Shown piece after piece: positions 23,666 to 61,885 of a stretch of DNA of 64,000 nucleotides. Every line of letters starts with the position of its first letter. Positions within the stretch are counted from its first letter, which is position 1. Both the position numbers and the translations under genes were made by a program. Source of the DNA: Candidatus Omnitrophota bacterium (GTDB taxonomy: Bacteria; Omnitrophota; Gorgyraeia; Zapsychrales; JANLHA01); NCBI GenBank assembly GCA_029560465.1, contig JAKQKX010000062.1:3836-67835 (forward strand), written 5' to 3'. The notes below the pieces were generated by a model. That model searched no databases. It was not told the origin of the DNA and saw only the letters and a program-made list of their open reading frames with translations.

Positions 23666-23678
23666 AGACGTTTTTATT

Positions 23679-38870: not shown

Positions 38871-39030
38871 AGCCCATATTATAACATAACTGGGCTTTTG
38901 CACAAATTTATCCCGTAGGCTTGGGCCGATGGGGGGCGGCTGGCGCGGAAGTTTTAACTGTGGACAGAGGCGGGGAGCCATATTATTATGGAGGTTGAAA
39001 AACCTCTAGGCACTCGGGAAAAGGGGAGAA

Positions 39031-40426: not shown

Positions 40427-40716
40427 AAGAATACACCATTTTAGCCGCCGCCTCTGTCTTGATGACGTGTCTGTGGGACCGCATCAGCGGGGTGAGGGTC
40501 TTGCGGCGAAATGAATTTTATGTGTTTTTATCTTTTATCTTTTTACTGAAGCTGCTGGTGAACGGGTATCTGACAGGGGCTGGGATTGTTTTATACGAGC
40601 CGCGTTTTTTCCTGGGCTACCGCCTGGGAAGCATCCCCTTCGAGGATTTATGTTTTGGATTCAGCCTGGTCACGGTAACGATCGTTTCCTGGGAATATTT
40701 TAAGACGCGGGGTTAA
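40423..40716 (+). CDS. crtYd: Lycopene cyclase domain protein (heterodimeric CrtYd-like)
   Basis: ~97-aa 3-TM protein with PFED motif; 4-nt overlap with crtYc. Confidence 0.55.
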   Translation: MKEYTILAAASVLMTCLWDRISGVRVLRRNEFYVFLSFIFLLKLLVNGYLTGAGIVLYEPRFFLGYRLGSIPFEDLCFGFSLVTVTIVSWEYFKTRG

Positions 40717-41611
40717 CGCGGTGAAGATGGCCGGTCCGGCGTCCCCCCTGAAGCCCCCGTTTCTTTAAACGGAAGCCCCCCCAGAGGATGTGGACTATAA
40801 AATAGCCCTTGAGCAGGAGCAGCAATTTGTGAAAATCAGAGATCCGGATCCTTGCCCTGAGCAGGGTGGCGACCGGGAGTTTCCTGATTCTTTTAAAAAG
40901 GGCGACATAATACAGGTATACAGAGTACACAGCGAGTCTGTAATCCTTGGGCATCCGTTTAATGCCCGGGAGGGCTTCTTTAAATTCTTCTGCGATCTCC
41001 GCCTCCATTCTTTTCTTGGCCTCTTCGTCGATGCTTGGCCTGTCTTTGATCCCGGGCAAATAAATCCGCCCGCGCTCCTCCAGATCGTTTTTGATATCCC
41101 GAAGGAAATTTGTTTTCTGGAGAGCGGCCCCCAACTTTTTAGCCGGTACCTCCAAGTCCCGGAATAACGCATCATCCCCGCTGCAGAAGATTTCCAGGCA
41201 CATCAGCCCGATGACTTCGGCGGACCCGTAGACGTAGCGCTCGTAGGATTCCTGGCTGTGCGTCTTATAGGTGATATCCATGTCCATGCTGGTCAAGAAG
41301 GCCTGGACATAGCTTTGGTCAATTTTGTATTTATGAACGACATCCTGGAAGGATTCCAGGATGGGGTTCGTGGAAACGCCCGAGCGGATGGCTTCGGCGG
41401 TGTCCTCTTTGAATTTTTCTAACAGCCTTTTTTTGTCATAATCATGGAAAGTGTCCACGATCTCGTCGGCTACGCGCACGAATCCGTATAGGCCATAGAT
41501 CGCCTGTTGCGTTTCCTGCGGGAAAACTTTGATCCCGGAGCTAAAAGAGGTGCTGTAGCGGTTGGTCAGGAGGCGGCTGATCCGGTGGCAGGTCTTAAGA
41601 TAAAGGTCCAT
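40700..41611 (-). CDS. crtB: Phytoene (or dehydrosqualene) synthase, squalene/phytoene synthase family
   Basis: YGFVRVADEIVD first Asp-rich motif, second motif region FLRDIKND, ~300 aa. Confidence 0.75.
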   Translation of the reverse strand: MDLYLKTCHRISRLLTNRYSTSFSSGIKVFPQETQQAIYGLYGFVRVADEIVDTFHDYDKKRLLEKFKEDTAEAIRSGVSTNPILESFQDVVHKYKIDQSYVQAFLTSMDMDITYKTHSQESYERYVYGSAEVIGLMCLEIFCSGDDALFRDLEVPAKKLGAALQKTNFLRDIKNDLEERGRIYLPGIKDRPSIDEEAKKRMEAEIAEEFKEALPGIKRMPKDYRLAVYSVYLYYVALFKRIRKLPVATLLRARIRISDFHKLLLLLKGYFIVHILWGGFRLKKRGLQGGRRTGHLHRVNPAS

Positions 41612-43076
41612 GGTCCTGGATGATCCTCTCGAACGTGAGCTTTGACCCGACGATCACCATCGGCAGGCCCGTGCCGGGTACGGTCGAAGCTCCGACATAG
41701 TAAAAGTTGCCCAGTTTTTCGTCTTTGTTTTTCGGCCGGAAGTATCCGATCTGGAATAGCCCGTGGCACAGCCCTAATCCCGAGCCGCGGTAAAGATTAA
41801 ACATCGATTCCCAGTCTTCAGGGGTGAGGATTTTCCGGGTTAGCGTGTTTTTCATGACATTGAAATGGACCCTTTTTGAAAAATCGTTGATGATATTATC
41901 CGCGAAATTGTCCTTGTCTGTCCAGTTCTTTTTGAAGCGCAGGTCCGGGACGGGGCAGAGGATTAAAATGCTTTCGCAGCCGGGAGGGGCATAACCGGGG
42001 CAGGCCTTTGAGGCGACGTTGACATAATAATACGGCCTTTCTGGGCTTGCCGATGAGGACAGGAATTTCCTTGCGTACCCTTTAAAATTATTGCCGAGGA
42101 AATAGTTATGCTGCATCGCGTTTTCGATCTTCCCTTGAACGCCTAAATAAATCGTGAAGGGCGCGAAACCCCAGTGCATTTTGTCCAGGCGGCACGGGCT
42201 GTATTGCGGCCTTTTTAGAATCAGGCCGCGGAAAGAGGCCGCATCGGCGTTGCAGACAAAGACATCGGCTTCCCACCTGCGGCCGTTTTGGTCCTTAACC
42301 CCGGTGGCCCTATTATTTTCCTCCAAGACTTCTTTGACTTCTGTTTCGAATATAAAATTTGCCCCCTTGTCCCTGAGGATTTTTTCCAGTTCTTCGATGA
42401 TGCGGTACATCCCGTCCTGAACGCCCCAGTACCCGTTATGGCGGAATTCAACGTAATTCAAGAGGGAATAGATCGCGGGTGTCTCAAAGGGTGTCGCGCC
42501 GAGGAAGAAGGAAACCAGGGAGAATATGACTTTCGCTTCCCGGGAGGAGAAGTTTCTCTCCACTTCCTGCCACATGTTCCTGAAAAGATAGGGGAGGAGG
42601 GTGATGTCCCGGCGGGCTATTTTGCCCAAGAAATCCGTAAGGCCGTAAACATTGCTTTTTATGAGGGGGGCTTCGGTGTTGTTGAATATTTTCCGGCCTT
42701 GGGCGAGGTAGCGTTCGACTTTTGTTTTGAGATGCGGTTCGATGCCGGCGAATTCCTCTTCCAGGATGGAAAGGTCCTTCCATATTCTGTAAGGATGCGG
42801 TTGATGTTCAAAAAACACCTGGTACAGGGGGTCGAGTTCCTTTAGCTCCAGGGAGAGGGGGATGCCGCAGCTTCGGAAGAGTTCCTCGGTTTCATAGGTC
42901 ATGCTCATGAAAGACGGCCCGATGTCGAACTTGAATCCGTCAAGCTTAAGCTGATTCAGCCGGCCTCCCGGGGTTTTATTTTTTTCCAGGATCGTGACGC
43001 TATACCCCGCGGTGATAAGCCTTAAGGCTGTGGCTAAGCCGCCTAAACCCGAACCGATAATCACGGCTTTTTTCAT
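41595..43076 (-). CDS. crtI: Phytoene desaturase family FAD oxidoreductase (CrtI/CrtN-like)
   Basis: N-terminal GSGLGGLATALRL dinucleotide-binding motif, ~490 aa; overlaps crtB start. Confidence 0.75.
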   Translation of the reverse strand: MKKAVIIGSGLGGLATALRLITAGYSVTILEKNKTPGGRLNQLKLDGFKFDIGPSFMSMTYETEELFRSCGIPLSLELKELDPLYQVFFEHQPHPYRIWKDLSILEEEFAGIEPHLKTKVERYLAQGRKIFNNTEAPLIKSNVYGLTDFLGKIARRDITLLPYLFRNMWQEVERNFSSREAKVIFSLVSFFLGATPFETPAIYSLLNYVEFRHNGYWGVQDGMYRIIEELEKILRDKGANFIFETEVKEVLEENNRATGVKDQNGRRWEADVFVCNADAASFRGLILKRPQYSPCRLDKMHWGFAPFTIYLGVQGKIENAMQHNYFLGNNFKGYARKFLSSSASPERPYYYVNVASKACPGYAPPGCESILILCPVPDLRFKKNWTDKDNFADNIINDFSKRVHFNVMKNTLTRKILTPEDWESMFNLYRGSGLGLCHGLFQIGYFRPKNKDEKLGNFYYVGASTVPGTGLPMVIVGSKLTFERIIQDHGPLS

Positions 43077-43157
43077 GGCGCCCGTTCCTTGCGATTCCTG
43101 ACCGGCGGTGTCCAAGAGATCGCTGAGAGGCTCCCCTGATAAAAAGATCCCAAGCTT

Positions 43158-45098
43158 TCAGGTTTTCGTCGGGATGGCAGAGGAAAGCCAGTTCAATATT
43201 TTCCCGCTTTTAGAGGTTTTAACAAATTCTCTGATTGTTGTTGTTATTCCTGCGGCGTCCACGCCGTAATGCTTTAAAAGCAGCGACCGGGCGCCGTGCT
43301 TGAGGAACTCAGAGGGGAGATGAATCACTTTGATTTCAATGGCGTTTTTGTACTCAGGATGGGTGTGCAGTAATTCCAGGATGGCGCTGCCAAATCCGCC
43401 TTCCCTGACCCCTTCTTCCAGAGTGACGATTTTTTTAAATTTGGAGATTTCTTTTATAAATATCTCAGGGTTCAATGGTTTGGCAAACCGGGCATTCACG
43501 ACTTCCGCGGAAATGCCTTCTTTCTCTAACTCTTGAGCCGCTTGCAGCGCAGGCATGACCATGCTCCCTAAGGCCAAGAGAAGGATATCGTTGCCGTTTT
43601 TGATCACTTGAGGATTTCCTAAAACCAGCTTTTCCTGGGGCAGGCCGTTTTCCACGAGGACGTCTTCTTTGGGATAACGGATCGCCACGGCTTGGTTTAA
43701 AGAAACGGCGAAAGCGAGCATGTCTTTTAATTCGGCAATATCTTTGGGCGCCATCACGACCATGTCCGGGACATGACGCAGGTACGCGATGTCAAAGAGC
43801 CCTTGGTGGGACATGCCGTCCGCCCCGACGATCCCCGCCCGGTCGAGGGCAAAAATGACCGGCAGCTTTTGCATGGACACGTCGGCGAGGATTTGGTCGT
43901 AAGCCCGTTGCAGAAAAGTCGAGTAGATGGCCACAACGGGTTTAAAGCCTTTGTGCGCCAGCCCGCTGGCGAAGCACACCGCGTGCGCTTCGGCAATCCC
44001 AACATCAAAGAATTTTTTGGGCAATTGTTTCCGGAACTCTTGCAGACCGGTCCCTTCGCACATGGCGGCGGTGATGGCGACGATTTTGTCGTCTTGCCGG
44101 GCTAATTCCAAAAGTTTTCCGGCGAAGGCCTCGGTGTAGCTCATCTTCGCGGGGTCTTCCGCCTTTTTGAACGTGCCTGTCTTGGGGTCAAAACGGGATG
44201 CGCCGTGGTAAGCGACAGGGTTGTTTTCGGAAGGGGGGTAGCCATGGCCTTTCTGGGTGATCACGTGAATGAAGATCGGTTCTTTCAGTTTCAGGGAGGC
44301 GATATTTTTAAATGTCTCCGTGAGGGACAGCACGTTGTGCCCATCCAGGGGGCCGAAATATCGGAACCCCAGTTCTTCAAAGAAAATTCCGGGGACAATA
44401 AGGCCTTTGAGGAATTCTTCGAACCGCTCCGTGACTTTCATCATCCGCGGCCCCATGCGCTGCAGCCGGGTTTCGACAAAACGATGCGCCGCGTCCTTGA
44501 CCCGATTATAAATCGGCTGGGAGATAAGTTTATTCAAATATTTACTGAGGCTCCCCACGTTGGGGGAGATGCTCATGTCATTTGAATTTAAGATAACAAT
44601 CAGGTCTTTTTGAGACTGTCCGACATTGTTGAGCCCTTCAAAGGCGAGCCCTCCGGTCAGGGAACCGTCCCCCAGAATGGCGATCACTTTCTCATTCCCG
44701 CCCAACAGATCCCGGGCCGCCGCGACCCCGGCCGCCAGGGATATCGTGTTAGAGGCGTGGCCGGTCGTGAACGGGTCGTAAGGCGATTCATCCCTGTTGG
44801 GGTAGCCGCTGATCCCGCCGAATTGTCGTATGGTGTTGATTTTGTCTTTTCTTCCGGTCAGGATTTTATGGGCGTAGGCCTGATGCCCCACATCAAAGAG
44901 GATGCTGTCCCTGGGCGCGTTGAAGACATAGTGCAAAGCGATAATCAGCTCGACCGTGCCTAGGTTCGAGGCCAAATGCCCGCCGTTTTCAGACACAACC
45001 TCTATGATCTTTTGGCGGATCTCCTGGGCGAGAACAGGCAGTTGAGAGATATCCAGTTTTTTGAGGTCTTGGGGGCTGTTGACTTTTTCCAAATACAT
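43158..45098 (-). CDS. dxs: 1-deoxy-D-xylulose-5-phosphate synthase
   Basis: 646 aa; N-terminal INSPQDLKKL...GGHLASNLGTVEL, TPP-binding GDG motif, transketolase-like C-terminus. Confidence 0.9.
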   Translation of the reverse strand: MYLEKVNSPQDLKKLDISQLPVLAQEIRQKIIEVVSENGGHLASNLGTVELIIALHYVFNAPRDSILFDVGHQAYAHKILTGRKDKINTIRQFGGISGYPNRDESPYDPFTTGHASNTISLAAGVAAARDLLGGNEKVIAILGDGSLTGGLAFEGLNNVGQSQKDLIVILNSNDMSISPNVGSLSKYLNKLISQPIYNRVKDAAHRFVETRLQRMGPRMMKVTERFEEFLKGLIVPGIFFEELGFRYFGPLDGHNVLSLTETFKNIASLKLKEPIFIHVITQKGHGYPPSENNPVAYHGASRFDPKTGTFKKAEDPAKMSYTEAFAGKLLELARQDDKIVAITAAMCEGTGLQEFRKQLPKKFFDVGIAEAHAVCFASGLAHKGFKPVVAIYSTFLQRAYDQILADVSMQKLPVIFALDRAGIVGADGMSHQGLFDIAYLRHVPDMVVMAPKDIAELKDMLAFAVSLNQAVAIRYPKEDVLVENGLPQEKLVLGNPQVIKNGNDILLLALGSMVMPALQAAQELEKEGISAEVVNARFAKPLNPEIFIKEISKFKKIVTLEEGVREGGFGSAILELLHTHPEYKNAIEIKVIHLPSEFLKHGARSLLLKHYGVDAAGITTTIREFVKTSKSGKILNWLSSAIPTKT

Positions 45099-45679: not shown

Positions 45680-46606
45680 ATGATGGGGAACAAGGCTTTC
45701 ATAAAAGCGATCAAGTGGGGGGGGGTTGTTGGGTTAGGGCTGGTGCATATCGCCTGCGGTGCCCCGGATTGTAACAAGTTTCCTTTAGAGAAACAGAAAA
45801 CTTTAAAAAAGTGTGTCTATAAATCATTGGATCGGGACGGGCGGCTCAGGCAACAAGGGATAAAACGCTTTGGGAAACTAAGCGGGAAAGCCAAAACGTT
45901 TTACGAAGACGGGAAACTTAAAGCTGTCAATGAATATACGGAAGGCCGGTTGCATGGCTTATCGATTAGTTATTACCCGAATGGCAAGGTGGAAAGTAAA
46001 GTGGAATATAAGAACGGCCGGCCGGATGGGCTTAATCAGACTTTCTTTGAGGTCGGAACGGTAAGCAAAGAATATGTTTATAAGGACGGGTTACCGCAGG
46101 GGCGTTTTAAAAAGTTGAACCCGAAAGGGGAGCTCTTGGAAGAGGGCGAATATGTAGAAGGTGATTTGAATGGCCTCATGAAAACATATGATAATGGGGT
46201 GCTTTTTTATGAGCAGGAATACAAGAAAGGGAAGAAGGACGGCGTTTACCGGGAGTACTATCCAACAGGAGAGGTCGTTAAAGTCGCTTCCTGGGTCGAC
46301 GGGAAGTTGACCGGGACGGTGCAGGAATTTTATAAAAGCGGTAAATTGAAGTTGACATATACCTTGGACAACGGCCTGCTGACCGGAACCAAGAGCGCTT
46401 ATGAGCCTGATGGAAAAATCCTTTCTGAACAGAGCTATATGCACAACCGGCTGAACGGGGAAAGTAAATACTATAAGCAGGGATCTTTGCGCCAGGTAGA
46501 TTTTTACCAGGAAGGCTTTATGTATAAGAGGCAAATTTATGCGGGGGAGGGTAGATTAGAAATTGAATATGATTATTCGGGACAGGGCCAAGGTGCCCGC
46601 CCCTGA
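45680..46606 (+). CDS. MORN-repeat (YwqK-like) protein with signal peptide
   Basis: ~10 tandem units of Y(Y/E)xNG(K/Q)L..E..Y..G...G (e.g. FYEDGKLKAVNEYTEGRLHG, YYPNGKVESKVEYKNGRPDG). Confidence 0.6.
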   Translation: MMGNKAFIKAIKWGGVVGLGLVHIACGAPDCNKFPLEKQKTLKKCVYKSLDRDGRLRQQGIKRFGKLSGKAKTFYEDGKLKAVNEYTEGRLHGLSISYYPNGKVESKVEYKNGRPDGLNQTFFEVGTVSKEYVYKDGLPQGRFKKLNPKGELLEEGEYVEGDLNGLMKTYDNGVLFYEQEYKKGKKDGVYREYYPTGEVVKVASWVDGKLTGTVQEFYKSGKLKLTYTLDNGLLTGTKSAYEPDGKILSEQSYMHNRLNGESKYYKQGSLRQVDFYQEGFMYKRQIYAGEGRLEIEYDYSGQGQGARP

Positions 46607-46646: not shown

Positions 46647-47024
46647 ATGTTGAAGAAAAAGATCCTTGTGGTTGACGATGAACCCGATATCGTTGAGTTG
46701 ATTCAGGCGAGGCTCACCCGGCAGGGGTATGACGTGATATGCGCCTGTAACGGGATGGAGGCCTTGCGGTTAGCTAAAATGTGCACGCCTCATTGCATTA
46801 TCCTGGATATGATGCTGCCGGATATCCAGGGTTCAAGCGTGTGCGCGCAGTTAAAAACGGATGAGAAATATCGCATGATTCCCATTATTTTATTGACAGC
46901 CCGGAGCCGGGACTACGATAAGGATATCGGCCGGGCAGTTAAAGCGGACGTTTATATGACCAAACCGTTTGACCAGAACGAGCTGTTAGATAAAATTCAG
47001 GAGCTCCTCACAGGAAAGTCTTAG
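46647..47024 (+). CDS. Stand-alone response regulator receiver (CheY-like)
   Basis: KKILVVDDEPDIV...CIILDMMLPDIQG...IILLTA...K motifs. Confidence 0.8.
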   Translation: MLKKKILVVDDEPDIVELIQARLTRQGYDVICACNGMEALRLAKMCTPHCIILDMMLPDIQGSSVCAQLKTDEKYRMIPIILLTARSRDYDKDIGRAVKADVYMTKPFDQNELLDKIQELLTGKS

Positions 47025-47097
47025 CGGTTTAAAAAGAATTGAGGGAGATGCCCGATGGCTTTCGCCGGGGACTTCAATTCGGGTGAAAAACTGATTG

Positions 47098-49041
47098 ATG
47101 AAAAAAGGCCGTCTTTCATTGACCTCTGCGCTTCAGTTGCTGCATACGTATCTTTCTCCAGTTTTCCTTTTATTTTTTTTTGATGAGACTGTTGTCACAA
47201 CATACGTCCCGCCTGCTTTCGTGGCATCCCAGAAGCTTTTATTGGCGGGGTTATGTTATATCGGCAAGCTGGTTATCGGCAGCGGGATGTGCGGGACCAT
47301 GGCGGAATTGTTGTCCGGGGAGAAAGACAGCGTCACAATCCATGATTTCTGGGGGAATGTCCGGGATTTCTGGGCCCTGACGATGCTGATGCACGTCCTG
47401 AAGGTCGCCTTTCTTTTCCTCGTGTATTTTTGGGATCAGGCCGCGCAGCTGACTTTGTTGGGGGCGTGTCTGGATTTGCCCTTGCTTTTTCTGTTGAGTG
47501 CGGCGGTCCTGCATAAGAAATACCACGCTAAAACAGGGTTCCATTGGCGTGCCGGATCGTTCCCGGTCAGGGCGATGGGCCCTATTGTGATGATTTTTAT
47601 GTTTCAGGTGGCCGTTTTTTTCCCTCAGACGTATCTGCCGGACCTCCCGGATCAAGGGCACCTGTTTTTAATCCTTATATCTAAATATTTATATGTGCTG
47701 CTGTTTATCCTCATTACAAAATTTATTTTAGACGGCCTGCCGGCTGTCGCCAGTTTTTATTCTTCCCATCGAGAACTGCTTCTGATTAATCCCCTGGGAG
47801 GCGGGACGATATGGGAGGGGCTGGCGTCACTTGTTTTAAGGTCTGACCCGCCGGTTTTCACCGTTATCAAGGCGCTGACGCCCTCGCCATACACGATCAG
47901 GATGTTCTCCCGGGTTTTTTGGCGCAAGCGGTATTATAAGCCGGGAGTCTTGGTGGCGATAACGTGTTATTCCTGCAATAGTTTTGAGGCCTATAAAATC
48001 GCCAAGGAATTCCGGAAACGCGGAGCCCGGGTTGTGATGGGGGGGCCGCATGTCACCAGCTTGCCCGATGAGGCTCTGGCGTTTTGCGACAGCGTGGTGG
48101 TGGGAGAGGCGGAAGGTGTGTGGGCGTCGGTATTAGCGGATTATGAGAAGGGCGCGCTTAAGCCCGTCTATCATGCCCCTCCCTCTGAAACCCAGTTTAA
48201 TCAGGTGCATCAATATCTTTTACAGGCGCCCGCACAAGAAGTCATGGCTTATATGGAGACCAGCCGCGGGTGCAAATTCCATTGTTATTTTTGTGCCGTC
48301 TATAATATTTATGAAGGCCGGAGGAGGCAGAAGCCGGTATCAGAAGTCGTCGAACAGATCAGAAGGCTCCGCTCCAAGCACTGGTGTTTTCGTTTTATTG
48401 ACAGTAATATTTTTACGGACCCGGCGTATGCCAAAGAATTGTTTGAGGCGTTAATTCCATTGAAGATTATCTGGACCGGGAGCAGCAGCATTGACATCGC
48501 CGCGCACGAGGACTGTTTGCGGTTGGCGAGAGCCAGCGGCTGCATTGGCCTTTTGGTCGGCTACGAAATCTCCCAAACTTCTCCGGAGAAAAAACAGGGC
48601 GGCAAACTGAAGATGGCGGATAAATATCTTGAATACACGCGGAAAATAAAAAAGGCGGGTATCAACGTGAAAGGGCATTTTATGTTTGGCTTTGATTCCG
48701 ACCGTTTTAAGGATCTTCCGGCGTTGTGGCGGTTTTGCCTGTCTGTTTTTCCGTCGTGGACGGTCCTCAGCATCCTCACCCCGATTCCGGGAACTCAGCT
48801 TTTTCAGGATATGCTCACCGAGGGCCGGGTGATGAACGCGAACTGGAAGCGGTACACGACCTTTGAGCTGCTTTTACGGCCGCGTCAAATGGACTACGCC
48901 ATCCTGAAGGCGCTGTATCCATTCGCGAAGATGTTTTTTTTCTTCACGACGTCTCAAAACGGCTGGCTTTTGATCATAGCCGTCCTGTTAATCTTGAAAA
49001 TTTTTTGGACTATGTTAAGTCCGGGGTTTTTATCACCCTGA
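47098..49041 (+). CDS. Membrane-anchored B12-binding radical SAM enzyme (paralog 1)
   Basis: ~270-aa N-terminal polytopic membrane domain; B12-binding Rossmann VLVAITCYSCNSFEAYKIAKEFRKRGARVVMGGPHVTSLP; radical SAM cluster CKFHCYFC; C-terminal TM helix. Confidence 0.7.
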   Translation: MKKGRLSLTSALQLLHTYLSPVFLLFFFDETVVTTYVPPAFVASQKLLLAGLCYIGKLVIGSGMCGTMAELLSGEKDSVTIHDFWGNVRDFWALTMLMHVLKVAFLFLVYFWDQAAQLTLLGACLDLPLLFLLSAAVLHKKYHAKTGFHWRAGSFPVRAMGPIVMIFMFQVAVFFPQTYLPDLPDQGHLFLILISKYLYVLLFILITKFILDGLPAVASFYSSHRELLLINPLGGGTIWEGLASLVLRSDPPVFTVIKALTPSPYTIRMFSRVFWRKRYYKPGVLVAITCYSCNSFEAYKIAKEFRKRGARVVMGGPHVTSLPDEALAFCDSVVVGEAEGVWASVLADYEKGALKPVYHAPPSETQFNQVHQYLLQAPAQEVMAYMETSRGCKFHCYFCAVYNIYEGRRRQKPVSEVVEQIRRLRSKHWCFRFIDSNIFTDPAYAKELFEALIPLKIIWTGSSSIDIAAHEDCLRLARASGCIGLLVGYEISQTSPEKKQGGKLKMADKYLEYTRKIKKAGINVKGHFMFGFDSDRFKDLPALWRFCLSVFPSWTVLSILTPIPGTQLFQDMLTEGRVMNANWKRYTTFELLLRPRQMDYAILKALYPFAKMFFFFTTSQNGWLLIIAVLLILKIFWTMLSPGFLSP

Positions 49042-49147
49042 TCATTCCGGCTGGCCGGCAAAAACGGGATAGGAATGCCAGGCATCCCTGTCCCGTATGG
49101 CTGGGCGCGCGATGTTGGTCTGGGTACGGCGTTGGAAGGACACGGTC

Positions 49148-51091
49148 ATGAAAGAACTGCTGAAATGTTTCCGGGAGTCGTATCAAATCCTGCACTCGTA
49201 TCTTTTTTCGGTGCTCATAGTATTTTTTTGTGAAGGGGCCGTTATAAATCATTATTTCAGCGGGGCCTTTATCACGAGGCATGTTCAGGCTTTCTTGATC
49301 GCCGGAGGCCTGGTCAGGACTTTTTTTTACAGCGGGATTTTCGGGGCGCTGGTTGATTTATGCACGGGAGAAGAATACCGCATCACGATGGGGTCTTTTT
49401 GGCGGAACGTCAAGGAGGTTTGCCCTGTTTACCTGTTAGCCCAGGCCGTAAAATTGGCCGCCCTTTTCCTGCTTTTTTCCAGCGGACTTGATTTAGAAAA
49501 CGGGCTGGTCGGATTCGGGGTTGATCTGCCTGTCTTATGCTTGCTGGCTTTCGGAATCCTGTGGCGGAAAGCCGCCGCTCGTGGAATTAAGACGAAGGTG
49601 CTTCCGGCGATAAAATTATTCGATGCCGCCTTCATTATTTTTATATGGGCCCTTCAACTGGCGGCCCGCGTGTCCGCCCCGGTCTTGGGATTAGAGAACC
49701 ACTACATTGCGGGCGGGATTCTTGGGGCGGAGAAATATCTGAGTTTGTTGTTGTTTGTATTCATTGTGAAAATTTATATCAAAAGGGACCTTTCATTCGG
49801 GGAAATATGGAAGCCCAGGCAAGAGATTTTTTTTATTAATCCTCTCGGGGGAGGCTCTTTCCGCGAAGATTTGTCTTCGCTTCTGATCCTTTATTATCCC
49901 TATAATTTCCTTGTTTTAGAGGCGTTGACCCCGAAAAAGTACCAGATCCGGAAATTCTGTCGGGTCTTTTGGCGTAAACGGTATTATAAAAGCAATGTCC
50001 TGGTCGCGATCACCAGCCATACCTGCAATATTTCAGCGGCGTATAAAATCGCGAAAGAATTCAGGAAAAGAGGCGCTAAAGTCGTGATGGGGGGCTCCCA
50101 TGTGTCCTGCCTTCCGGAGGAGGCTTTGGCGTTTTGTGACAGCGTGGTGGTGGGAGAGGCCGAGGGCGTGTGGGAGGCGCTTTTAGCGGATTATGAAAAT
50201 AATGACCTCAAGCGGGTGTACCATGGGGCCGCGTCCGAGGCCCAATATAACAAGGTCCATCAATTCTTTTTGCAGGCGCCGGCCGAGGAGGTCGTGGACA
50301 ATTTGGTGACCACCCATGGCTGTAAGTTCAATTGCAGTTTTTGTGCCGTCCGCACCATCAATGAAGGCCGGACGAGATGTAAACCCGTGTCCCAGGTCAT
50401 TGAACTGATTCAAAGGTTTCGCCCAAAGCGCACGTACTTTCATTTTCTCGACAGTAATATGTTCACGGATCCGGCGTATGCCAAGGAATTGTTCCAGGCG
50501 CTCATCCCTTTAAAAATCAAATGGCGGGGGTGCAGCAGCCTTGATATCGCCGCGGATGAGGATTGCCTGCGGCTGGCCAAAGCCAGCGGGTGTGTCGGCC
50601 TTTTGATCGGATATGAAATCAATCAGGCGTCCCCGGAGAAAAAACAGGGCGGCAAACTGAAGTTGGCGGACCAATATCTGGAATATACGAGGCGGATTAA
50701 GAAGGCGGGCATTGATGTCAAAGGGCACTTTATTTTTGGGTATGATTCCGACCGTTGGAAGGATTTATTCGATTATTGGAAATTCTGTTTTAATATTTTT
50801 CCAAGCCACACGGGGTTTTCCATATTAACCCCCTTGCCGGGAACGCGGCTTTTTGCCGGCCTGTTGGCAGAGGGGCGTATTATGAATGCGAATTGGCAGC
50901 AATATACGACTTTACAAATAGTTTTCAAAACAAGGCAGGTGGATTTTAAAAAGGTCGGAATCTTTTTCCCGTTTATTATGATTTTATTTTACCTCACCAC
51001 ATCGAAAAACGGGTGGTTCTTGTTAGTGTCGTTAATATGCCTTGGCAGCATTGTCCTTAAAATAATGACAATGAACACCATGATGTTTTAA
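49148..51091 (+). CDS. Membrane-anchored B12-binding radical SAM enzyme (paralog 2)
   Basis: Same architecture as 47098-49041; CKFNCSFC cluster; N-termini align (YQILHSYLFSVLIVFF vs LQLLHTYLSPVFLLFF). Confidence 0.7.
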   Translation: MKELLKCFRESYQILHSYLFSVLIVFFCEGAVINHYFSGAFITRHVQAFLIAGGLVRTFFYSGIFGALVDLCTGEEYRITMGSFWRNVKEVCPVYLLAQAVKLAALFLLFSSGLDLENGLVGFGVDLPVLCLLAFGILWRKAAARGIKTKVLPAIKLFDAAFIIFIWALQLAARVSAPVLGLENHYIAGGILGAEKYLSLLLFVFIVKIYIKRDLSFGEIWKPRQEIFFINPLGGGSFREDLSSLLILYYPYNFLVLEALTPKKYQIRKFCRVFWRKRYYKSNVLVAITSHTCNISAAYKIAKEFRKRGAKVVMGGSHVSCLPEEALAFCDSVVVGEAEGVWEALLADYENNDLKRVYHGAASEAQYNKVHQFFLQAPAEEVVDNLVTTHGCKFNCSFCAVRTINEGRTRCKPVSQVIELIQRFRPKRTYFHFLDSNMFTDPAYAKELFQALIPLKIKWRGCSSLDIAADEDCLRLAKASGCVGLLIGYEINQASPEKKQGGKLKLADQYLEYTRRIKKAGIDVKGHFIFGYDSDRWKDLFDYWKFCFNIFPSHTGFSILTPLPGTRLFAGLLAEGRIMNANWQQYTTLQIVFKTRQVDFKKVGIFFPFIMILFYLTTSKNGWFLLVSLICLGSIVLKIMTMNTMMF

Positions 51092-51696
51092 ATAGCCTGG
51101 AGGATTTTGGAGAAGTGATAAATGTGGTGGCTCGAAAGGGTCCAGCTGCATAAAAGGAAGAGCAGCCCGAACAGGAACACCCCGTCTAAGATGTTGTTCG
51201 GGAAAAACGGCGAAATAAACAATAAAAACAGGCCTATTAATGCGGCCCTGAAAACATTTTCCGTGAAATAAATACAGTCGAGCAGGGAATGCGTGTTGTA
51301 TTTTTTGCTTAAAAGTTCCGTAAGGTAATACAAGGTTTTTTCCTCAAAGAAAAGCTCATCGAATTCCTCTTTAAGTAAAGTGCCTGCGATTTTTACGACG
51401 ATCTTTTTTTTAGCCCGTTGGTTCATGGTCAGAAGGCCGCTGAGTGGTAATATGGCCAGGAGAATCATCACCAGGTGATTCGCGATAAATGCTCCCAAGG
51501 AAAGCAGGATTAATATTTTATAGATGATTTCCAGCGCCTCTGTCATTTTTAAGGGATGCGCCAAGGCATGGAGGGAAGGGTGGCGTTCCCACGCGAGTTT
51601 AACCTGCGGTTGCCAGAGGAAGTAGTTGAGCCACTCAAATGTGGCAGAGTCATTTTCTATAGTATTAATAATAGTTGTATATGTAGAAACTTTCAT
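51088..51696 (-). CDS. Hypothetical integral membrane protein
   Basis: 202 aa with 4-5 hydrophobic helices; convergent with and 4-nt overlapping paralog 2 stop. Confidence 0.4.
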   Translation of the reverse strand: MKVSTYTTIINTIENDSATFEWLNYFLWQPQVKLAWERHPSLHALAHPLKMTEALEIIYKILILLSLGAFIANHLVMILLAILPLSGLLTMNQRAKKKIVVKIAGTLLKEEFDELFFEEKTLYYLTELLSKKYNTHSLLDCIYFTENVFRAALIGLFLLFISPFFPNNILDGVFLFGLLFLLCSWTLSSHHIYHFSKILQAI

Positions 51697-51852: not shown

Positions 51853-51881
51853 TTGACAAAACCCCTTATTTTATTGAATAT
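51853..51881 (+). promoter_or_regulatory. Candidate sigma70 promoter (TTGACA - 17 nt - GAATAT) in AT-rich region
   Basis: Consensus -35 TTGACA 51853-51858; plausible -10 17 nt downstream; ~40 nt upstream of coiled-coil gene start with SD gaggag. Confidence 0.35.
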
Positions 51882-51918
51882 TAGTATTATATTTAATAAT
51901 TTAATTGAGGAGAAATAC

Positions 51919-53871
51919 ATGCAAAAATTCATAATATGGCAGAGGAGAAGGTTAACCATCCTGGCGGTCATCTTGGTGTTGTCGTTCGGGGGATGGCATG
52001 GTGTTTTCGGGCAGGAGAAAGGGGAGGAAGGGCTGTACGAATGGCAGCTGCGGCCGTATAGTCATGTCCATCAGGAATATAATGAAAAAAGAAGTGAAGA
52101 GAACAAGAAGCAGGCTGAGGAAAATCTGAAGTTAAAAAAGAGCAAGCGGATGCTGAAGGAAGAATACGAGGTCTTGCAGGACAAGTTAAAAAGCCAGGAG
52201 CAGGTGAATGACGAGTTAAAACAAAAGATCGTAGAATTAAAACAGTTGAATAAACAGATCCTGGTTGATTTTAGAAAACGCCAGGACGAATATGATGAGT
52301 TGCAGGACATGTTTGTCCAGCAGCAACAGGAAAACGATTTGCTGCGGGACCGTATCGTTCGCCAGGAAGAGGATAACCGGCTTCAGGAGGAAAAGAACAC
52401 GCAGTTAGAGGAGACGAATCTGGAGCTGGTTAAGCAGTATGACCAGGCGGAGAAAGACTATAAAGAACTTGAATCTCTTTACCAGAGCCAGCAGACCGAG
52501 AATGAGGACCTCCGGCAAAAGACGGAAGAAATGGACGCGGAGAAAACCAAAACCCAGGCGCGGGTGAATGAATTGACGGCGGTGAATAAGCAGCTCAAGG
52601 AACAGTATGAGAGCCTGCAGAGCGAGAATATTGAAATAGAGACTTTGGCGAAAAATAAAGAAGACGAAAAGCAGCGCTATGAGCGGTTGATCGCTGAATT
52701 TGAAAAAGTTCAGGCGGATTATAATGAGATGGAAGCCCTTTTCCAGGAACAGCAGAAGGAGACGGAGGCTTTGGCCGAGAAACTCGGGGTCTTGGAAATG
52801 GACAGGAATGAAAAACAGAAACGGGCGGAAGAGCTGACGGAAAGCAATGCCATGCTGAAAAAAGAATATGATTCTTTAACGCAGGAAAATGTTGAGCTGG
52901 AATCTGTGACCAAAGCCCAGGAAGAAGAAAGCAAGAAATTAAAGAAACTGATAAAGGAATTTGAGAACGCCAAGGAAGAATATGACGAGATGGAAGTCCT
53001 GTTTGAACAGCAGCAGGCCGATAATAAGCGTTTGAAACAGCAGCTGGCAGAACTTGAGAAAGAGAAGAATGAAAAAGAAGGGCGCATGGGAGAGCTGAAA
53101 GCGCTGAATAAAATGTTAAAGGAAGAATATGATTCTCTTCACAAAGAGCAGGGAGAACTGGAATCTTTAGCAAAGGTCCAGGAAGAGGAAAATAAGAAAC
53201 TTCAGAAGATGATCAAGGAATTTGATAAAGTCAAAAAGGAATATGACGGGTTGGAAAAATTATTTATTCAACAACAGGCTGAAAATAAGAGGGTTAAAGA
53301 GGAATTGGGGTCCCTGGAAAAAGATAAGAATGAAAAGCAGGCCCGGATGGATGAGCTTAAGAATTTGAATAAAATGCTCAAAGGGGAGTATTCGTATCTT
53401 CAGCAGGAGAAAGTGGAGCTGGAAAGTTTAGCGAAAGCCCAGGAAGAAGAAAACAAGAAATTGCAGGGGCTGATCAAGGAATTTGATCAAGCCAAAGCTG
53501 ATTATGACGATTTGGAAACTCTGTTCAAACAGCAACAGAATGAGAACCGGCGCTTAACCGAGCAGCTGGCAGCTATGGAACAGGAAAAAGATGCGAAACA
53601 GGACCGTATGGGTGAATTAAAAAAGTTAAACGATAATCTTAAAGAAGATTTTCTGAAGATGCAGAAAGAGCAGACGGCCCTGGAATCTTTGGCTAATGAG
53701 CAGGAGCGGGAAAACAGGAAGTTGAAAGAACAGCTGGAAAAAGAAAAAGAGGATTTCGGTAAAAGGCTCCTGGATTTCTACAAGCAGGAAGAAGAGATAT
53801 TGAATCAGCGTATTGATGAATACCAGAAGCGCCAGCAGGAATTGAAAACGTTGATTAAGCAGCGGCAGTAA
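51919..53871 (+). CDS. Large coiled-coil repeat protein with N-terminal signal/TM anchor
   Basis: N-terminal RRRLTILAVILVLSFGGW hydrophobic segment, then ~600 aa of E/K/Q-rich heptad sequence in ~87-aa tandem repeats (ELESLAKAQEEENKKL...LIKEF..AK.EYD.LE.LF.QQQ.ENKRL). Confidence 0.6.
   Translation: MQKFIIWQRRRLTILAVILVLSFGGWHGVFGQEKGEEGLYEWQLRPYSHVHQEYNEKRSEENKKQAEENLKLKKSKRMLKEEYEVLQDKLKSQEQVNDELKQKIVELKQLNKQILVDFRKRQDEYDELQDMFVQQQQENDLLRDRIVRQEEDNRLQEEKNTQLEETNLELVKQYDQAEKDYKELESLYQSQQTENEDLRQKTEEMDAEKTKTQARVNELTAVNKQLKEQYESLQSENIEIETLAKNKEDEKQRYERLIAEFEKVQADYNEMEALFQEQQKETEALAEKLGVLEMDRNEKQKRAEELTESNAMLKKEYDSLTQENVELESVTKAQEEESKKLKKLIKEFENAKEEYDEMEVLFEQQQADNKRLKQQLAELEKEKNEKEGRMGELKALNKMLKEEYDSLHKEQGELESLAKVQEEENKKLQKMIKEFDKVKKEYDGLEKLFIQQQAENKRVKEELGSLEKDKNEKQARMDELKNLNKMLKGEYSYLQQEKVELESLAKAQEEENKKLQGLIKEFDQAKADYDDLETLFKQQQNENRRLTEQLAAMEQEKDAKQDRMGELKKLNDNLKEDFLKMQKEQTALESLANEQERENRKLKEQLEKEKEDFGKRLLDFYKQEEEILNQRIDEYQKRQQELKTLIKQRQ
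52380..53760 (+). repeat. Intragenic tandem coding repeats, period ~261 nt (87 aa), ~5 copies
   Basis: Repeat starts recognisable at ~52900, ~53161, ~53422, ~53683 (g/tggagctggaa..ttagc.aaag.ccaggaagaggaaaa). Confidence 0.5.
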
Positions 53872-54152: not shown

Positions 54153-55082
54153 ATGGCCGATACCTCCAGAAAACAGATGTTTTCTCGCGGATGTGTTGTT
54201 TTTCCGCTTTTATTGACGGTGCTTGTTTTATTCACCGACGCGAAGACCGCTTATATCAGCCGCCTTAATTATCTGAAGAGCAGGGTTGAATATTATTTGC
54301 TGAATTTCCAGGCCGGGAAGGCCCTTTATGATCGACAGAATTTTGTCCAGGCGGCCCGGTATTATGAATTGCTGATCGCTAAATCAAAAGAATCTGATCT
54401 CTTTTATGCTAGCCTTGGGTTTTGCCGGTACCATTTGGGAGATTTTGACCGTGCGTTTCAGGCCTATGAGTTCGCTTTTTCCAGGCAGCCGCATATCTAT
54501 ACCTACGCCTGGGATCTGGGCATGATGTCCTATGCCCTCGGGAATTATTCAAACGCTGTGAAGTATTTGAATCAGAGCCTGGAGGAAGTTCCTTGGACGG
54601 CCAGATTGGTGGTAGGGCTTGCCGAACAGAAGAACACCCGGCAGGGGCAACCCGGTGGCGTCTCCGGCATCTTGTCCCGTTTTCGCGAAAGAGCGGCACA
54701 GGACGAGATTCACGCGATTCATATTCTAGCCCAGAGTTATGACCGGTTGGAAAATTATGGCAAGATGCTTCAGGTGGCCACGCTTGGTTTACGCCGACAC
54801 GGGCCGCAACCGCTTTTGCTTTTCGATCAAGCGCTCGCCTTGTTGCGGATGGGCCAGTATAAAGCCGCAGAGAGCATCTTTTCTGCGGCCATCGCTAAGG
54901 ATCCTTTGGGAGGCCGGGTGTATCATTACCGGTCTTTGGCCCGGAATCATTTGGCGGACACCGCCGCAGCAGAAGAAGATGAAGCCCTGGCTGTGCGGCT
55001 GGGGATGAAGGACCCGGACGAGAGGGAACGGTTCCCTTTACATATAAACTTTGATTTGATTTATCTCCTTTATCAATCTTGA
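54153..55082 (+). CDS. TPR-repeat protein with N-terminal TM anchor
   Basis: VVFPLLLTVLVLF TM, followed by multiple TPR-like units (AARYYELLIAKSKE, YASLGFCRYHLGDFDRAFQAYEFAFS...). Confidence 0.6.
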   Translation: MADTSRKQMFSRGCVVFPLLLTVLVLFTDAKTAYISRLNYLKSRVEYYLLNFQAGKALYDRQNFVQAARYYELLIAKSKESDLFYASLGFCRYHLGDFDRAFQAYEFAFSRQPHIYTYAWDLGMMSYALGNYSNAVKYLNQSLEEVPWTARLVVGLAEQKNTRQGQPGGVSGILSRFRERAAQDEIHAIHILAQSYDRLENYGKMLQVATLGLRRHGPQPLLLFDQALALLRMGQYKAAESIFSAAIAKDPLGGRVYHYRSLARNHLADTAAAEEDEALAVRLGMKDPDERERFPLHINFDLIYLLYQS

Positions 55083-55087
55083 GCCCC

Positions 55088-57418
55088 ATGTCACCTATCC
55101 TACATCGCGTTGCCCGGCCTTTAAACCGGATGTTTGCCGGATTATCTTTTATCCTGCTGGCGTTGCAGTTGCCTTTTTTAGCATCCGTTGTGCTCCCCGT
55201 CCATGACACCATGCATATCTTCGGTATATTTCACGCTTTTTATAATGAATTTTTTTTCCGCGGTAAAATTATGCAGTGGTTCCCGGAGGTCTCTTACGGG
55301 TTGCCCACCCATATGAATCAATTGATGAACCTTTCTCCCTTGAGTTATTTCGCCATGCTGGCCGGCAGCCTGTTGCGGATCAAGGATGTTTTGTTTTTAT
55401 ATAAATTGTCTTTATGCTTGGAAGCTTTTGTTTTTTTAGCCGGAGTTTATAAGTTAGCCGGCCTCTTGTTTCGGCGCAAAGATACGGTTTTCTTTGTCTG
55501 CCTTAGTTCTTTGGGCTCTGTTTTTCTATATGCTCAGATTTTTCTGAATTTCCGGATTGTTTATTTGTTCCCGTGGGCCTTGTTTTATTTTGTCCGATTC
55601 TCCCGTGAACGTTCTGGAGCCTGGCTGTGGAGCGGGGGGAGTTGCCTTTTGATCTCCCTCTGGGGCAGTTTACCGTATTACGCCGTGTTGTGGTTGATGG
55701 TGCTTTTTTTCCTGGGCCTGCCGTTCATCACCCGGCTTCCCGGTCTGGCGACGCGGGCCTTTTCTCCCCGGGGAAAATCCATTTTGATGCTGGCCCTTTT
55801 GCTTGCTTTGCTGGCGATTTATTTTTTTGATGCCCGTCACTTGACTTACGGGGTGACCCTTGTTTCTCCGGGGCGGGACAGCCAAAGCGGGCAGATCGCG
55901 GTTACGGAATTCATGGATTATGGCGGCAGGGGATCGTTGGGGGAGATCATGAGCAGCCTCTTGTTCGCCCGGCCGTTTTTTCTTTCTAACGGATCGGGGA
56001 TGGACAACACGGTTTATGTCGGCCTTATTCCGCTTTTTTTTGTTTTATGGGCGGGGGTGTTTGTCCGGGAACGGGGATTTTATGCGTTCTTTTTGGTTTA
56101 CGTCGTTTTGTTGCTGCTCGCTGTTAGTCCGTTGATGGCCCGGTTGCTTTACGCCTTTCCGGGTATGGCATATTTCCGGCATACCGGACTCGTGATGGGG
56201 TTTGCCAGATTATTCCTGATTGTCTCGGCTGGTTACGGCTGGGAACATTTCTGGAAGAGCGAAGGCTGGAACAACAGATTTAACCTGGCCGTTGTTTTTT
56301 GTTTTATTTTTCTGTGGGGGGGGGCGTTCTTTTTCTTGCTGTGGAAAAACGGCCGCTTTGAGCCTTTGCCGCTGTTTTCCCAAATAAGGATTGTCTTGCC
56401 GGGGGTGGTCTTTTTTTTATCTTTATTGGCCCTGGCTTGGGGGAAGACGGCGGTCCGTGGCCGGGGCGCGGGCCGGTTCCCGGAAGCGTTTATTGTTTTT
56501 TGCCTGGTGGATATGGTTTTGTTTCAGGTGGCGGCGTATCATCATCTGCCGCATTTGCGGACCCCGGAAGAGCGGGGTGTGCTTTCCAGCCGTTTTGTCA
56601 GCAAACGGCTGTTTCAGGCGGAACGGGTCCCACGTCCGCAGACCGACCGTTCCAAAAAGGCTTATCAGTTGATGGAAGAATTCGGGAAGGCCCCCCAATA
56701 CACATATAATGACTCCTTCTATCAGTTTGATCCCTGTTTTATCCCGGTCCGGGTGGACATGATCTGTCCCGGGATTGAGTATCTTTACCGGTTCAACCCG
56801 GTCCTTCCCACGGTCCTGTCCGGCTGTCATGAACCCAAACTGCGATTGATCAGCCGGGCCACGTGGATGGCCCCGGAGCAGCGGGACCGGGCGTTTCGTA
56901 ACCTTGTCGTGGCGCTTGAGCGTCTGTCCGTGATGCTGCCAGGCGGGCCTCAGAACGCTATCGCCGTCTTGACGGCCAGAACGCGGGGGCAGTTGATCCT
57001 CCCGGCGGAAGAGGCGAAGATGGGGCCGTCGGGGGCCGGGGGGGCGCCCATTGAACTAAGCCTGGAACAACAGCGGGATATCCGGGTGGAAGAGTATACC
57101 AGCGAACGTTTGCTATGCCGGGCCCGCGTGCCGGTTTCTCCCGGGGCTTGGATGCTTTATTCCCAGGCGTATCACCCGGGCTGGCGGGCCAGCATAGACG
57201 GGACAAGGGTTGGGATCAGCCAGGCCTTTGGCGCTTTTATGGCCGTCTTTGTCCCCGAGGGGGAGCACCATATCCTTTTTGAATTTAATAATGGGGCCGG
57301 GACGGTGTTAAGTTATCTGGTGGCTGTCGTTGGATTTTTGGCCGGGGGAATCTTGGTGTTGCTGTCATTCCGAGTTTTATTGAGTCGTGAACAGGACGGA
57401 GGACCCGGTGGCTGTTAA
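55088..57418 (+). CDS. YfhO-like GT-C polytopic membrane protein (paralog 1, intact)
   Basis: ~776 aa, >12 TM; N-terminal region FRGKIMQWFPEVSYGLPTHMNQL (YfhO-like PLWNP-type loop); C-terminal YHPGWRASIDGTRVGISQAFGAFMAVFVPEGEHHILFEF typical of YfhO C-terminus. Confidence 0.55.
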   Translation: MSPILHRVARPLNRMFAGLSFILLALQLPFLASVVLPVHDTMHIFGIFHAFYNEFFFRGKIMQWFPEVSYGLPTHMNQLMNLSPLSYFAMLAGSLLRIKDVLFLYKLSLCLEAFVFLAGVYKLAGLLFRRKDTVFFVCLSSLGSVFLYAQIFLNFRIVYLFPWALFYFVRFSRERSGAWLWSGGSCLLISLWGSLPYYAVLWLMVLFFLGLPFITRLPGLATRAFSPRGKSILMLALLLALLAIYFFDARHLTYGVTLVSPGRDSQSGQIAVTEFMDYGGRGSLGEIMSSLLFARPFFLSNGSGMDNTVYVGLIPLFFVLWAGVFVRERGFYAFFLVYVVLLLLAVSPLMARLLYAFPGMAYFRHTGLVMGFARLFLIVSAGYGWEHFWKSEGWNNRFNLAVVFCFIFLWGGAFFFLLWKNGRFEPLPLFSQIRIVLPGVVFFLSLLALAWGKTAVRGRGAGRFPEAFIVFCLVDMVLFQVAAYHHLPHLRTPEERGVLSSRFVSKRLFQAERVPRPQTDRSKKAYQLMEEFGKAPQYTYNDSFYQFDPCFIPVRVDMICPGIEYLYRFNPVLPTVLSGCHEPKLRLISRATWMAPEQRDRAFRNLVVALERLSVMLPGGPQNAIAVLTARTRGQLILPAEEAKMGPSGAGGAPIELSLEQQRDIRVEEYTSERLLCRARVPVSPGAWMLYSQAYHPGWRASIDGTRVGISQAFGAFMAVFVPEGEHHILFEFNNGAGTVLSYLVAVVGFLAGGILVLLSFRVLLSREQDGGPGGC

Positions 57419-58547
57419 TCTTTTTAAAGGGAAGAGAATCTGGAACGGTTTAAAATTCGTCTGGCCTTTGCTGTTATGGGCGTTCCTATACCGGAATATC
57501 CTCCTGGCTCGAGCCCCTGTTTTTCCGGAAACTTTTTATATTTATTCCATCGTAAGGTTTGTTCTAGACAATCTCTGTTCCGGAGTTTTCCCTCTCTGGA
57601 ATCCTTACCTTCTTTGGGGAGTCCCGATTCAGATTTTTCTGACGTATATCGGGATTTTTAATCCGGCCTGGGGGGCGATGCTCCTCCTGAAGCTGGGGGG
57701 AGTGGATTCTTATCAGGCCTTTATGTGCGCGGCTTTTGGATATTTCCTGCTCGGGCAGTTTGGGGTCTATTTCCTGGCCCGGGCGCTGCTGAAGGACGGG
57801 CGGGCGGCCTATGTGGCTTTTCTGCTTTCCCTGTTTTCTTCCGCGGGCATGACAGTGGGCATTCAGTATCACATGGTTCTTCTTTTTGTGCCGGTGGTCT
57901 GGCTGGCGTTCTTTTTATGCCGGTTTTATCAAAAGGGTTCCGCGCGGTACGTTTTGGGCGCGGTTTTTTGTTCCGTATTGATTTTAACAACATATCTGCC
58001 GTTGTACGCGGCTGTAGTTTTTTCGTGGGCCGCCCTGGCGTTGTTATTGACCTGCCCGTCGGTGCTGATCATTTTCTGGAGAGGGTGCCGTTCTTTCGCT
58101 CTGCGCAACCGCCTGTTAACTGCGGGCGTGACCGCCGCGGTCATCTTTTCCGCCTTGCCTGGCCTGCTGGCTTACCGCAGTGTCCATCGCAAAGAGGTGG
58201 TCGTCCCCTTCCGGCACCAGGGAAGCCGGGTGTTTGACCAGGGGCTGGCTTACCCGGATTATGCCGCTTTTACCGACGGGGCGTTGGCGGCGCGCATGTC
58301 GTTGCGCGATTTTTATGCTGACTTGAATGAATTGAATTATGGCAACGAAGGCATCCTTTATCTTGGCGGTTGGGCCTTTCTGGTGTTGCTTTTGTCCTTG
58401 CCCAACCGGGTGACTCGCCGGGGCCTGTTTCTTGCTGTCTTTAGCGTTTTGATTGCTTTCTTGGCGCTCGAAAAGGCCACCCCGGTCCATAAATTTTTGT
58501 TTCAGCATATTTTCGTGTTCCGGCTGACGCAACATGCATTTTTTTAA
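57408..58547 (+). CDS. YfhO-like GT-C membrane protein paralog 2, N-terminal part (terminates in a T7 run)
   Basis: GTG 57408 after SD ggacggagga; FPLWNPYLLWGVP motif; ends ...LTQHAFF* in tttttttaa. Confidence 0.5.
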   Translation: MAVNLFKGKRIWNGLKFVWPLLLWAFLYRNILLARAPVFPETFYIYSIVRFVLDNLCSGVFPLWNPYLLWGVPIQIFLTYIGIFNPAWGAMLLLKLGGVDSYQAFMCAAFGYFLLGQFGVYFLARALLKDGRAAYVAFLLSLFSSAGMTVGIQYHMVLLFVPVVWLAFFLCRFYQKGSARYVLGAVFCSVLILTTYLPLYAAVVFSWAALALLLTCPSVLIIFWRGCRSFALRNRLLTAGVTAAVIFSALPGLLAYRSVHRKEVVVPFRHQGSRVFDQGLAYPDYAAFTDGALAARMSLRDFYADLNELNYGNEGILYLGGWAFLVLLLSLPNRVTRRGLFLAVFSVLIAFLALEKATPVHKFLFQHIFVFRLTQHAFF

Positions 58548-60780: not shown

Positions 60781-60781
60781 T

Positions 60782-61864: not shown

Positions 61865-61885
61865 GCCCCTTGAGGAAAAAGACGG

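Follow-up and report, generated by a model that had tools for sequence, protein, structure and literature searches.

The window analysed here is a stretch of 64,000 nucleotides from a Candidatus Omnitrophota bacterium (assembly GCA_029560465.1, contig JAKQKX010000062.1, positions 3,836 to 67,835 of the forward strand). At positions 46647-51696 it carries two adjacent genes for integral-membrane proteins with a radical S-adenosylmethionine (radical SAM) core, which are headed by the gene of a stand-alone receiver and met from the opposite strand by the gene of a small membrane protein. All the open reading frames (ORFs) that an earlier, sequence-only reading had reported for this region are present as given. 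The two large proteins belong to a known catalytic superfamily, but their architecture and the small protein that accompanies them were not found described.

Two membrane-built radical SAM paralogs

Paralog 1 (647 amino acids (aa); 47098-49041, plus strand) is 100% identical to the database protein P0001, whose length of 647 aa places the start at the ATG at 47098, with the TTG at 47095 as an alternative. Paralog 2 (49148-51091, plus strand) has its longest ORF from 49097; alignment with the family places the true start at the ATG at 49148, which again yields 647 aa. The two proteins are 50% identical end to end, and both match the full-length profile of the family at positions 1-640. P0001 and nearly all homologs carry the annotation 'radical SAM protein [Candidatus Omnitrophota bacterium]'.

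Paralog 1 consists of an N-terminal membrane domain of six predicted helices (residues ~1-226; 47098-47772), a Rossmann-type, B12-binding-like domain (residues ~227-346; 47773-48132), a radical SAM core with the cluster motif CKFHCYFC (48271-48294), and a C-terminal amphipathic helix plus membrane helix with a TTSxxG turn (residues 601-640; 48895-49014), the last supported by hydropathy, alignment and structure model. Paralog 2 has the same architecture, with its CX3CX2C motif at 50321-50344, and all these features lie on the plus strand. Pfam places both proteins in the radical SAM superfamily (Radical_SAM, PF04055, 43.4 and 41.0 bits against a cut-off of 29.5) and matches the C-terminal half of the B12-binding domain at about its threshold (31.6 and 32.3 bits against 32.1). 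The cysteines C393, C397 and C400 of the CX3CX2C motif are invariant in an alignment of 40 homologs. An AlphaFold model of full-length paralog 1 built on this alignment (predicted local distance difference test (pLDDT) 90.7, predicted template modelling score (pTM) 0.87) contains a helical membrane domain at residues 3-222, a Rossmann domain from the strand at residues 227-232 ('LLLINP'), a radical SAM barrel with the partial TIM-barrel fold, and helices at 601-619 and 621-640. The Rossmann-type B12-binding domain ahead of the radical SAM domain is the layout of class B. The catalytic part is thus a genuine class-B-type two-domain radical SAM enzyme, though one that falls in no named family.

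Hydropathy is consistent with the modelled layout. Across the 40 homologs, each predicted cytoplasmic segment holds 2-5 Lys and Arg residues and the three outer loops hold 0.05-0.7, a distribution that, together with hydropathy, indicates an N-in topology with six N-terminal membrane helices. The outer loops are 2-6 residues long, and both the model and the positive-inside rule put the catalytic domain in the cytoplasm. The order of domains proposed by the sequence-only reading, including a transmembrane N-terminal region and a C-terminal membrane helix, is therefore real; the N-terminal domain measures ~225 aa and not the ~270 aa suggested then, since strand 1 of the Rossmann domain ('LLLINPLGGG') begins at residue 227. 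The pTM of the full-length model implies that the membrane and catalytic domains pack, as predicted, in a defined way.

The membrane domain, which modelled alone reaches a pLDDT of 91.0, has no Pfam match and is poorly conserved, G64, G67, W93 and Y198 being best kept. The motif SGxYGxLxELxSGEE marks the end of helix 2 on the cytoplasmic side. We searched 1.84 billion representative proteins with a profile built from 19 of the N-terminal domains, and it retrieved 95 proteins: ~640-aa proteins with the N-terminal domain, their fragments, or the two longer proteins P0159 and P0170. No match to the six-helix domain lay outside the radical SAM family in this search, so that we rejected the idea of a transporter or enzyme module shared with other proteins. 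Between paralogs 1 and 2, identity is 68% in the Rossmann domain and 67% in the radical SAM domain, against 28% in the membrane domain and 23% in the C-terminal membrane segment. This contrast of a conserved catalytic part with fast-evolving membrane parts suggests that the same chemistry may be applied to different membrane targets or in different membrane contexts.

A convergent membrane partner

The gene at 51088-51696 (minus strand) encodes a 202-aa membrane protein with ~four membrane helices, and its stop codon shares the sequence TTAA (51088-51091) with that of paralog 2. The overlap had been noted before, but its importance was undervalued, as no gene other than that of this protein is a conserved companion of the enzyme gene. 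In the six neighbourhoods inspected first (homologs 38-57% identical, among them three paralogs of one 3.36-Mb chromosome), a ~200-aa ORF without Pfam match abuts the enzyme stop on the opposite strand; in locus L002 it had been left uncalled. The ORFs in this position are homologous to the 202-aa ORF of the window (BLASTP E 1e-10 to 1e-40), which itself has no match in Pfam or NCBIfam.

A word-indexed database gave just 4 and 11 matches to the partner, a family too divergent for such an index, and a locus-based search with a hidden Markov model (HMM) was used instead. It covered 78 further loci from GTDB species genomes and counted a partner as convergent if it lay within -100 to +300 bp of the enzyme. 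The partner is convergent in 59 of the 69 evaluable membrane-type gene arrays and fused in frame in one more, and the same scan found it in none of the eight short-type relatives that lack the N-terminal membrane domain (absent from 8/8). The stops of enzyme and partner often overlap or abut (-46 to +149 bp in ~59 loci; for example L003 at 8944-8947, L016 and L042). This tail-to-tail arrangement could entail independent or mutually interfering transcription.

In P0159, P0170 and an ORF of locus L064, partner and enzyme form a single protein by in-frame fusion, with the partner at the N-terminal end. P0159 and P0170 (845 and 865 aa) represent clusters and are less than 50% identical to each other; the fused portions match free-standing partners with BLASTP E values down to 2e-29. 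The partner has two hydrophobic hairpins and two cytoplasmic parts, namely an N-terminal segment in which D16 and W22 are invariant and a helical segment in the centre (TLYQIxE...SLVD). Such a fusion is topologically consistent, since the helices of the partner are even in number and the enzyme is N-in.

Over 48 pairs, the distances among partners correlate with those among the adjacent enzymes, both in the membrane domain (r = 0.76) and in the catalytic domain (r = 0.77), which indicates that partner and enzyme are inherited together. In this mirror-tree comparison, made to see whether the partner co-evolves specifically with the membrane domain, it tracks both domains equally, which indicates joint inheritance and does not identify the contact surface. 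Mean distances show that the partner (0.76) and the membrane domain (0.79) evolve fast and the catalytic domain (0.51) slowly.

Family distribution and relation to known enzymes

At 90% identity the family falls into more than 1,000 clusters, and a genome scan found 440 relatives in GTDB species genomes; the counts per locus given here rest on the best 78 loci of these 440. The features proposed to define it, namely the A2 domain profile, the Rossmann domain, the radical SAM domain, the C-terminal anchor and the A3 partner, were all found in the window, the partner being placed 3 bp beyond the ORF of paralog 2. Whether class-B-type radical SAM enzymes with a fused membrane domain form a clade had been raised as a question; they do, and the clade is coherent. 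Nearly all of the best 78 loci are from Omnitrophota, and L066, from a metagenome-assembled genome (MAG) labelled 'Elusimicrobia', holds one full-length member with its partner. Some of the MAGs among the best loci are titled 'uncultured Planctomycetales' (binchicken co-assemblies); those carrying the gene pair are L007, L009, L013, L018, L020, L028, L034-L038, L041, L043, L047, L062, L070 and L078. Some of them are 80% identical to the window, and the Planctomycetales label of these MAGs is probably wrong.

Genomes hold several copies: the complete chromosome OY759724.1 has four loci, MHHG01 five genes and CAZFON01 six. Two or three of the genes commonly stand in tandem (L015, L038, L062, L013, L027, L029, L052, L061, L063), and either each gene has its own partner or one partner follows two enzymes. 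The latter is seen in L052, L061 and the window, where paralog 1 lacks a partner of its own. In L007, an 80% identical ortholog of paralog 1 is directly followed by the partner, and L008 has both paralogs; paralog 2 thus lies between paralog 1 and what was probably once the partner of paralog 1.

Short relatives of ~410-430 aa come from Elusimicrobia (L071, L073) and from MAGs that bear the labels Woesearchaeota and Methanosarcinales (L075, L084). They are 38-44% identical to the Omnitrophota enzymes across the catalytic part and are their nearest true relatives, likewise uncharacterised; they too stay below the cut-offs of the NCBIfam class-B models and fall in no curated family. They begin exactly at Rossmann strand 1 ('MKKLILVNPAFGG') and have no six-helix domain; the hydrophobic hairpin at the C-terminus, with its TTxxG turn, is retained. 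Since the C-terminal anchor is kept, membrane attachment predates the N-terminal domain and the Omnitrophota clade, and this clade appears to have gained the six-helix domain and the partner together. In the two DPANN-like archaeal MAGs (L084 at 969-7429, L075 at 1288-7504), the short gene belongs to a common operon-like block, in which it follows IscS, IscU and small ORFs. Next comes the gene of a 607-639-aa protein that begins with a signal anchor and has a large domain outside the cytoplasm, 3-4 membrane helices and a tail rich in Cys. The MAG with the Methanosarcinales label is syntenic with the Woesearchaeota MAG.

That the paralogs could not be assigned to a described family holds against curated models, as the class-B models of NCBIfam score 15-77 bits with cut-offs of 251-775. 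Partial matches are to TIGR04013 (MJ_1487; 76.8 bits against 251), HpnJ (71.7 against 577.6), BchE (64.1 against 481), the ladderane B12 radical SAM protein (57 against 360), AprD4 (43.8 against 500) and HpnR (34.7 against 650). Placement in TIGR04013, HpnJ, BchE, ApyD, ladderane, PhpK, HpnR, MgmA/MJ_0865, AprD4, BzaD or Slr0320 was rejected, all scores being below the NCBIfam cut-offs. A defence-system assignment was likewise rejected, PADLOC having given just generic radical SAM and receiver matches. Sequence searches of the PDB returned AprD4 (E 2e-9) and MgmA, to which a 40-sequence profile added the B12 domain of TokK; there were no other matches, and all of these are weak.

Class-B enzymes bind cobalamin base-off, and no sequence motif is diagnostic of the binding. 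The term cobalamin-binding, which the sequence-only reading had used for this module, describes its B12-binding-type Rossmann fold; the binding as such is putative. The closest solved structure, with 18% identity, is AprD4 (PDB 6fd2), a radical SAM 1,2-diol dehydratase of apramycin biosynthesis, which unlike the Omnitrophota enzymes is soluble, has neither membrane domain nor partner, acts on an aminoglycoside and binds no cobalamin. Both AprD4 and ArsL have a B12-type Rossmann fold without cobalamin (PMC12931638). As its closest structure binds none despite the Rossmann domain, the Omnitrophota family may or may not use cobalamin. MgmA/QCMT (9ccb), CysS (9n1b), TsrM (6wte) and TokK (7kdx), which are 14-19% identical to the Omnitrophota enzymes, are cobalamin-dependent class-B methylases. 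They are soluble and act on proteins, peptides or small molecules, whereas the Omnitrophota enzymes are membrane-built and only putatively cobalamin-binding.

GDGT-MAS/Tes, GrsA/GrsB, Hgm, HpnP/HpnR, HpnJ and the ladderane-associated B12 radical SAM protein offer a functional analogy. Lipid-modifying radical SAM enzymes, several of them of class B, work on unactivated carbons of membrane lipids (10.1101/2023.10.20.563219). We looked for sequence similarity or close structural similarity to the solved GDGT-MAS/tetraether synthase and found neither. Full-text searches of the literature for this family, or for B12 radical SAM enzymes that are transmembrane or embedded in a membrane, found no description. 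The words membrane and lipid are absent from a 2026 review on B12-dependent members of the superfamily (PMC12931638), and a 2026 survey of complete Omnitrophota genomes names radical SAM only as a Pfam domain inside giant proteins. About 230 Omnitrophota genomes of complete or high quality exist (10.64898/2026.06.07.730766).

Possible function and gene neighbourhood

The chances seem to us about even that enzyme and partner form one complex, in which the cytoplasmic radical SAM site acts on something in or at the inner membrane. Each paralog would be the catalytic subunit in such a heteromeric radical SAM enzyme of the integral-membrane type, and the ~200-aa four-helix partner would be the second subunit. 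The radical might attack an unactivated C-H bond in a hydrophobic substrate that resides in the membrane, for instance a quinone, a lipid chain or a polyprenyl-linked molecule, which the membrane domain and the partner would hold or laterally deliver. With cobalamin in the Rossmann domain, the reaction could be a C-methylation or another cobalamin-assisted step; without it, as in AprD4, it could be a rearrangement, an elimination or the formation of a C-C bond. The upstream receiver may modulate this ortholog and would not be part of the family design.

A lipophilic or membrane-resident substrate is the most economical reading, and it is supported by the short relatives that keep the C-terminal anchor. 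Ancestral membrane anchoring, membrane parts that diversify while the chemistry is conserved, and the absence of linked pathway genes make a lipid-like substrate likelier than other options. All-against-all clustering of the flanking ORFs gave no further recurrent gene family except an antisense artefact and generic response regulators, and the lack of a recurrent neighbour fits a common membrane constituent as the substrate rather than the product of a dedicated pathway.

Several findings weigh against such a complex. In ~13% of the evaluable membrane-type loci no partner is detectable, and the closest structures include several enzymes whose substrates are proteins or RNA (MgmA, RimO, MiaB). 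In addition, the convergent orientation rules out a common transcript for partner and enzyme, an unusual situation for components of one complex, and presumed subunits of one complex rarely keep a convergent gene order across a phylum.

Alternatively, the partner or another membrane protein might be the substrate, with the enzyme modifying, for example methylating, a residue in the conserved cytoplasmic segment of the partner. MgmA and Mmp10 modify methyl-coenzyme M reductase and RimO modifies ribosomal protein S12, and two of these protein modifiers, MgmA and RimO, are among the closest structures. The one-to-one pairing of partner and enzyme, which diverge together, would suit a modifier and its target, as would the invariant or near-invariant cytoplasmic residues D16, W22, E127 and S137 of the partner and the lack of other conserved pathway genes nearby. 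In-frame fusions, however, are more typical of subunits, and the window, L052 and L061 have two enzymes to one partner. The catalytic domain is intact in the short relatives and in the membrane-type loci without a partner, and a six-helix domain exceeds what is needed for reaching a neighbouring protein. We consider a protein substrate of this kind unlikely.

It is more doubtful still that the membrane parts are a mere anchor, or a transporter coupling, channel or scaffold outside the active site, and that the substrate is soluble, exported or imported. The low sequence conservation of the membrane domain would be in keeping with such a role, but with outer loops of 2-6 residues nothing is exposed to the periplasm, and no conserved transporter components or ATPases are found nearby. 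A receiver-controlled modification of carotenoid or isoprenoid products, suggested by the crtYcd-crtB-crtI and dxs genes that do lie 1.5-6 kb upstream and by a receiver that is retained directly upstream across the ortholog group, is very improbable, as these genes are on the opposite strand with a MORN-repeat gene between, dxs is adjacent only in the ~80% identical relatives L007 and L008, and neither crt nor dxs homologs are found in the 57% identical ortholog L001 or in the other ~70 loci, the latter also having no receiver directly upstream.

Returning to the proposed complex, a bolder version, for which we see somewhat less than an even chance, is a phylum-specific two-subunit membrane radical SAM family, present in 4-6 copies per genome, that would work inside the bilayer and directly remodel membrane lipids or other molecules embedded there, by reactions such as chain methylation, cross-linking or cyclisation. 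To our knowledge, every radical SAM enzyme with a B12-type domain whose structure has been characterised is soluble, and we know of no lipid-modifying radical SAM enzyme with a polytopic membrane domain. If the proposal is true, radical chemistry would reach membrane-resident substrates in a new way, through a catalytic domain permanently fixed in a membrane module of 6+1 helices and served by a dedicated four-helix partner. It would also be a route to lipid structures in the Omnitrophota, an uncultured phylum of very small cells. A family that is large, multi-copy and nearly confined to this phylum is likely to be part of the basic cell biology of the lineage. Being a two-gene unit with natural fusions, it is tractable for structural and biochemical work, and it offers a case for testing cobalamin binding by a B12-type Rossmann domain.

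The receiver at 46647-47024 (plus strand) is a CheY-like protein of 125 aa, 73 bp ahead of paralog 1. Its sole Pfam match is Response_reg (PF00072, 85.9 bits), without an output domain, and the catalytic residues of a receiver are complete (D10 and D11 of the acidic pocket, the phospho-acceptor D54, T84 and K106). The sequence-only reading had the paralogs headed by this receiver, which is correct for the window, L001/L011, L007 and L008, an ortholog group of at least 57% identity, and does not extend to the family, as the other ~70 loci have none directly upstream. Directly upstream of the receiver, at 45680-46606 (plus strand), is the gene of a MORN-repeat protein with a lipoprotein-like N-terminus, whose position is kept in L001, L007 and L008. 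The conserved block of L001 reads RNase PH-Ham1-AsmA-like-PtsP-MORN-receiver-enzyme-partner-coiled coil.

The carotenoid-type cluster of the window (40118-45098) consists of two ~100-aa membrane ORFs, which are heterodimeric lycopene-cyclase-like, an SQS_PSY protein and a crtI-family desaturase, beside dxs. The desaturase scores above its subfamily cut-off; the best match of the SQS_PSY protein is HpnD, sub-threshold. The cluster stands between the AsmA-like and MORN genes, at the spot where L001 has a PtsP-like gene. Large AsmA/DUF748/TamB-type proteins, members of a group implicated in phospholipid movement between the inner and outer membranes, are encoded 4-8 kb from the enzyme in two independent contexts (window 35769-38981, minus strand; L001 843-3944, L002 836-2137, L004 1-1181), which are too few cases for an association.

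Downstream of the partner, at 51853-53871 (plus strand), is the gene of a 672-aa protein that is anchored in the membrane at its N-terminus and forms a very long coiled coil rich in Glu, Lys and Gln; it has weak SMC-like matches only and is kept in this position in L001 and L007. The DNA of this gene is strongly purine-skewed (GC skew 0.31, AT skew 0.34), and a search for tandem repeats in it found none. The region at 54153-63982, which may be a cell-envelope glycan region, has genes for a TPR protein, a short-chain dehydrogenase, two polytopic membrane proteins that resemble YfhO, and two further radical SAM proteins of small size (360 and 356 aa); downstream in L001 is a group of radical SAM, glycosyltransferase and epimerase genes. 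Farther off, at 14327-30079, the window holds a long type II secretion/type IV pilus-like cluster with two secretins, a T2SSE ATPase, T2SSF, and T2SSK-like and PilN-like proteins; ahead of the cluster stands the gene of an Rce1-like CAAX protease with TPR repeats fused to it.

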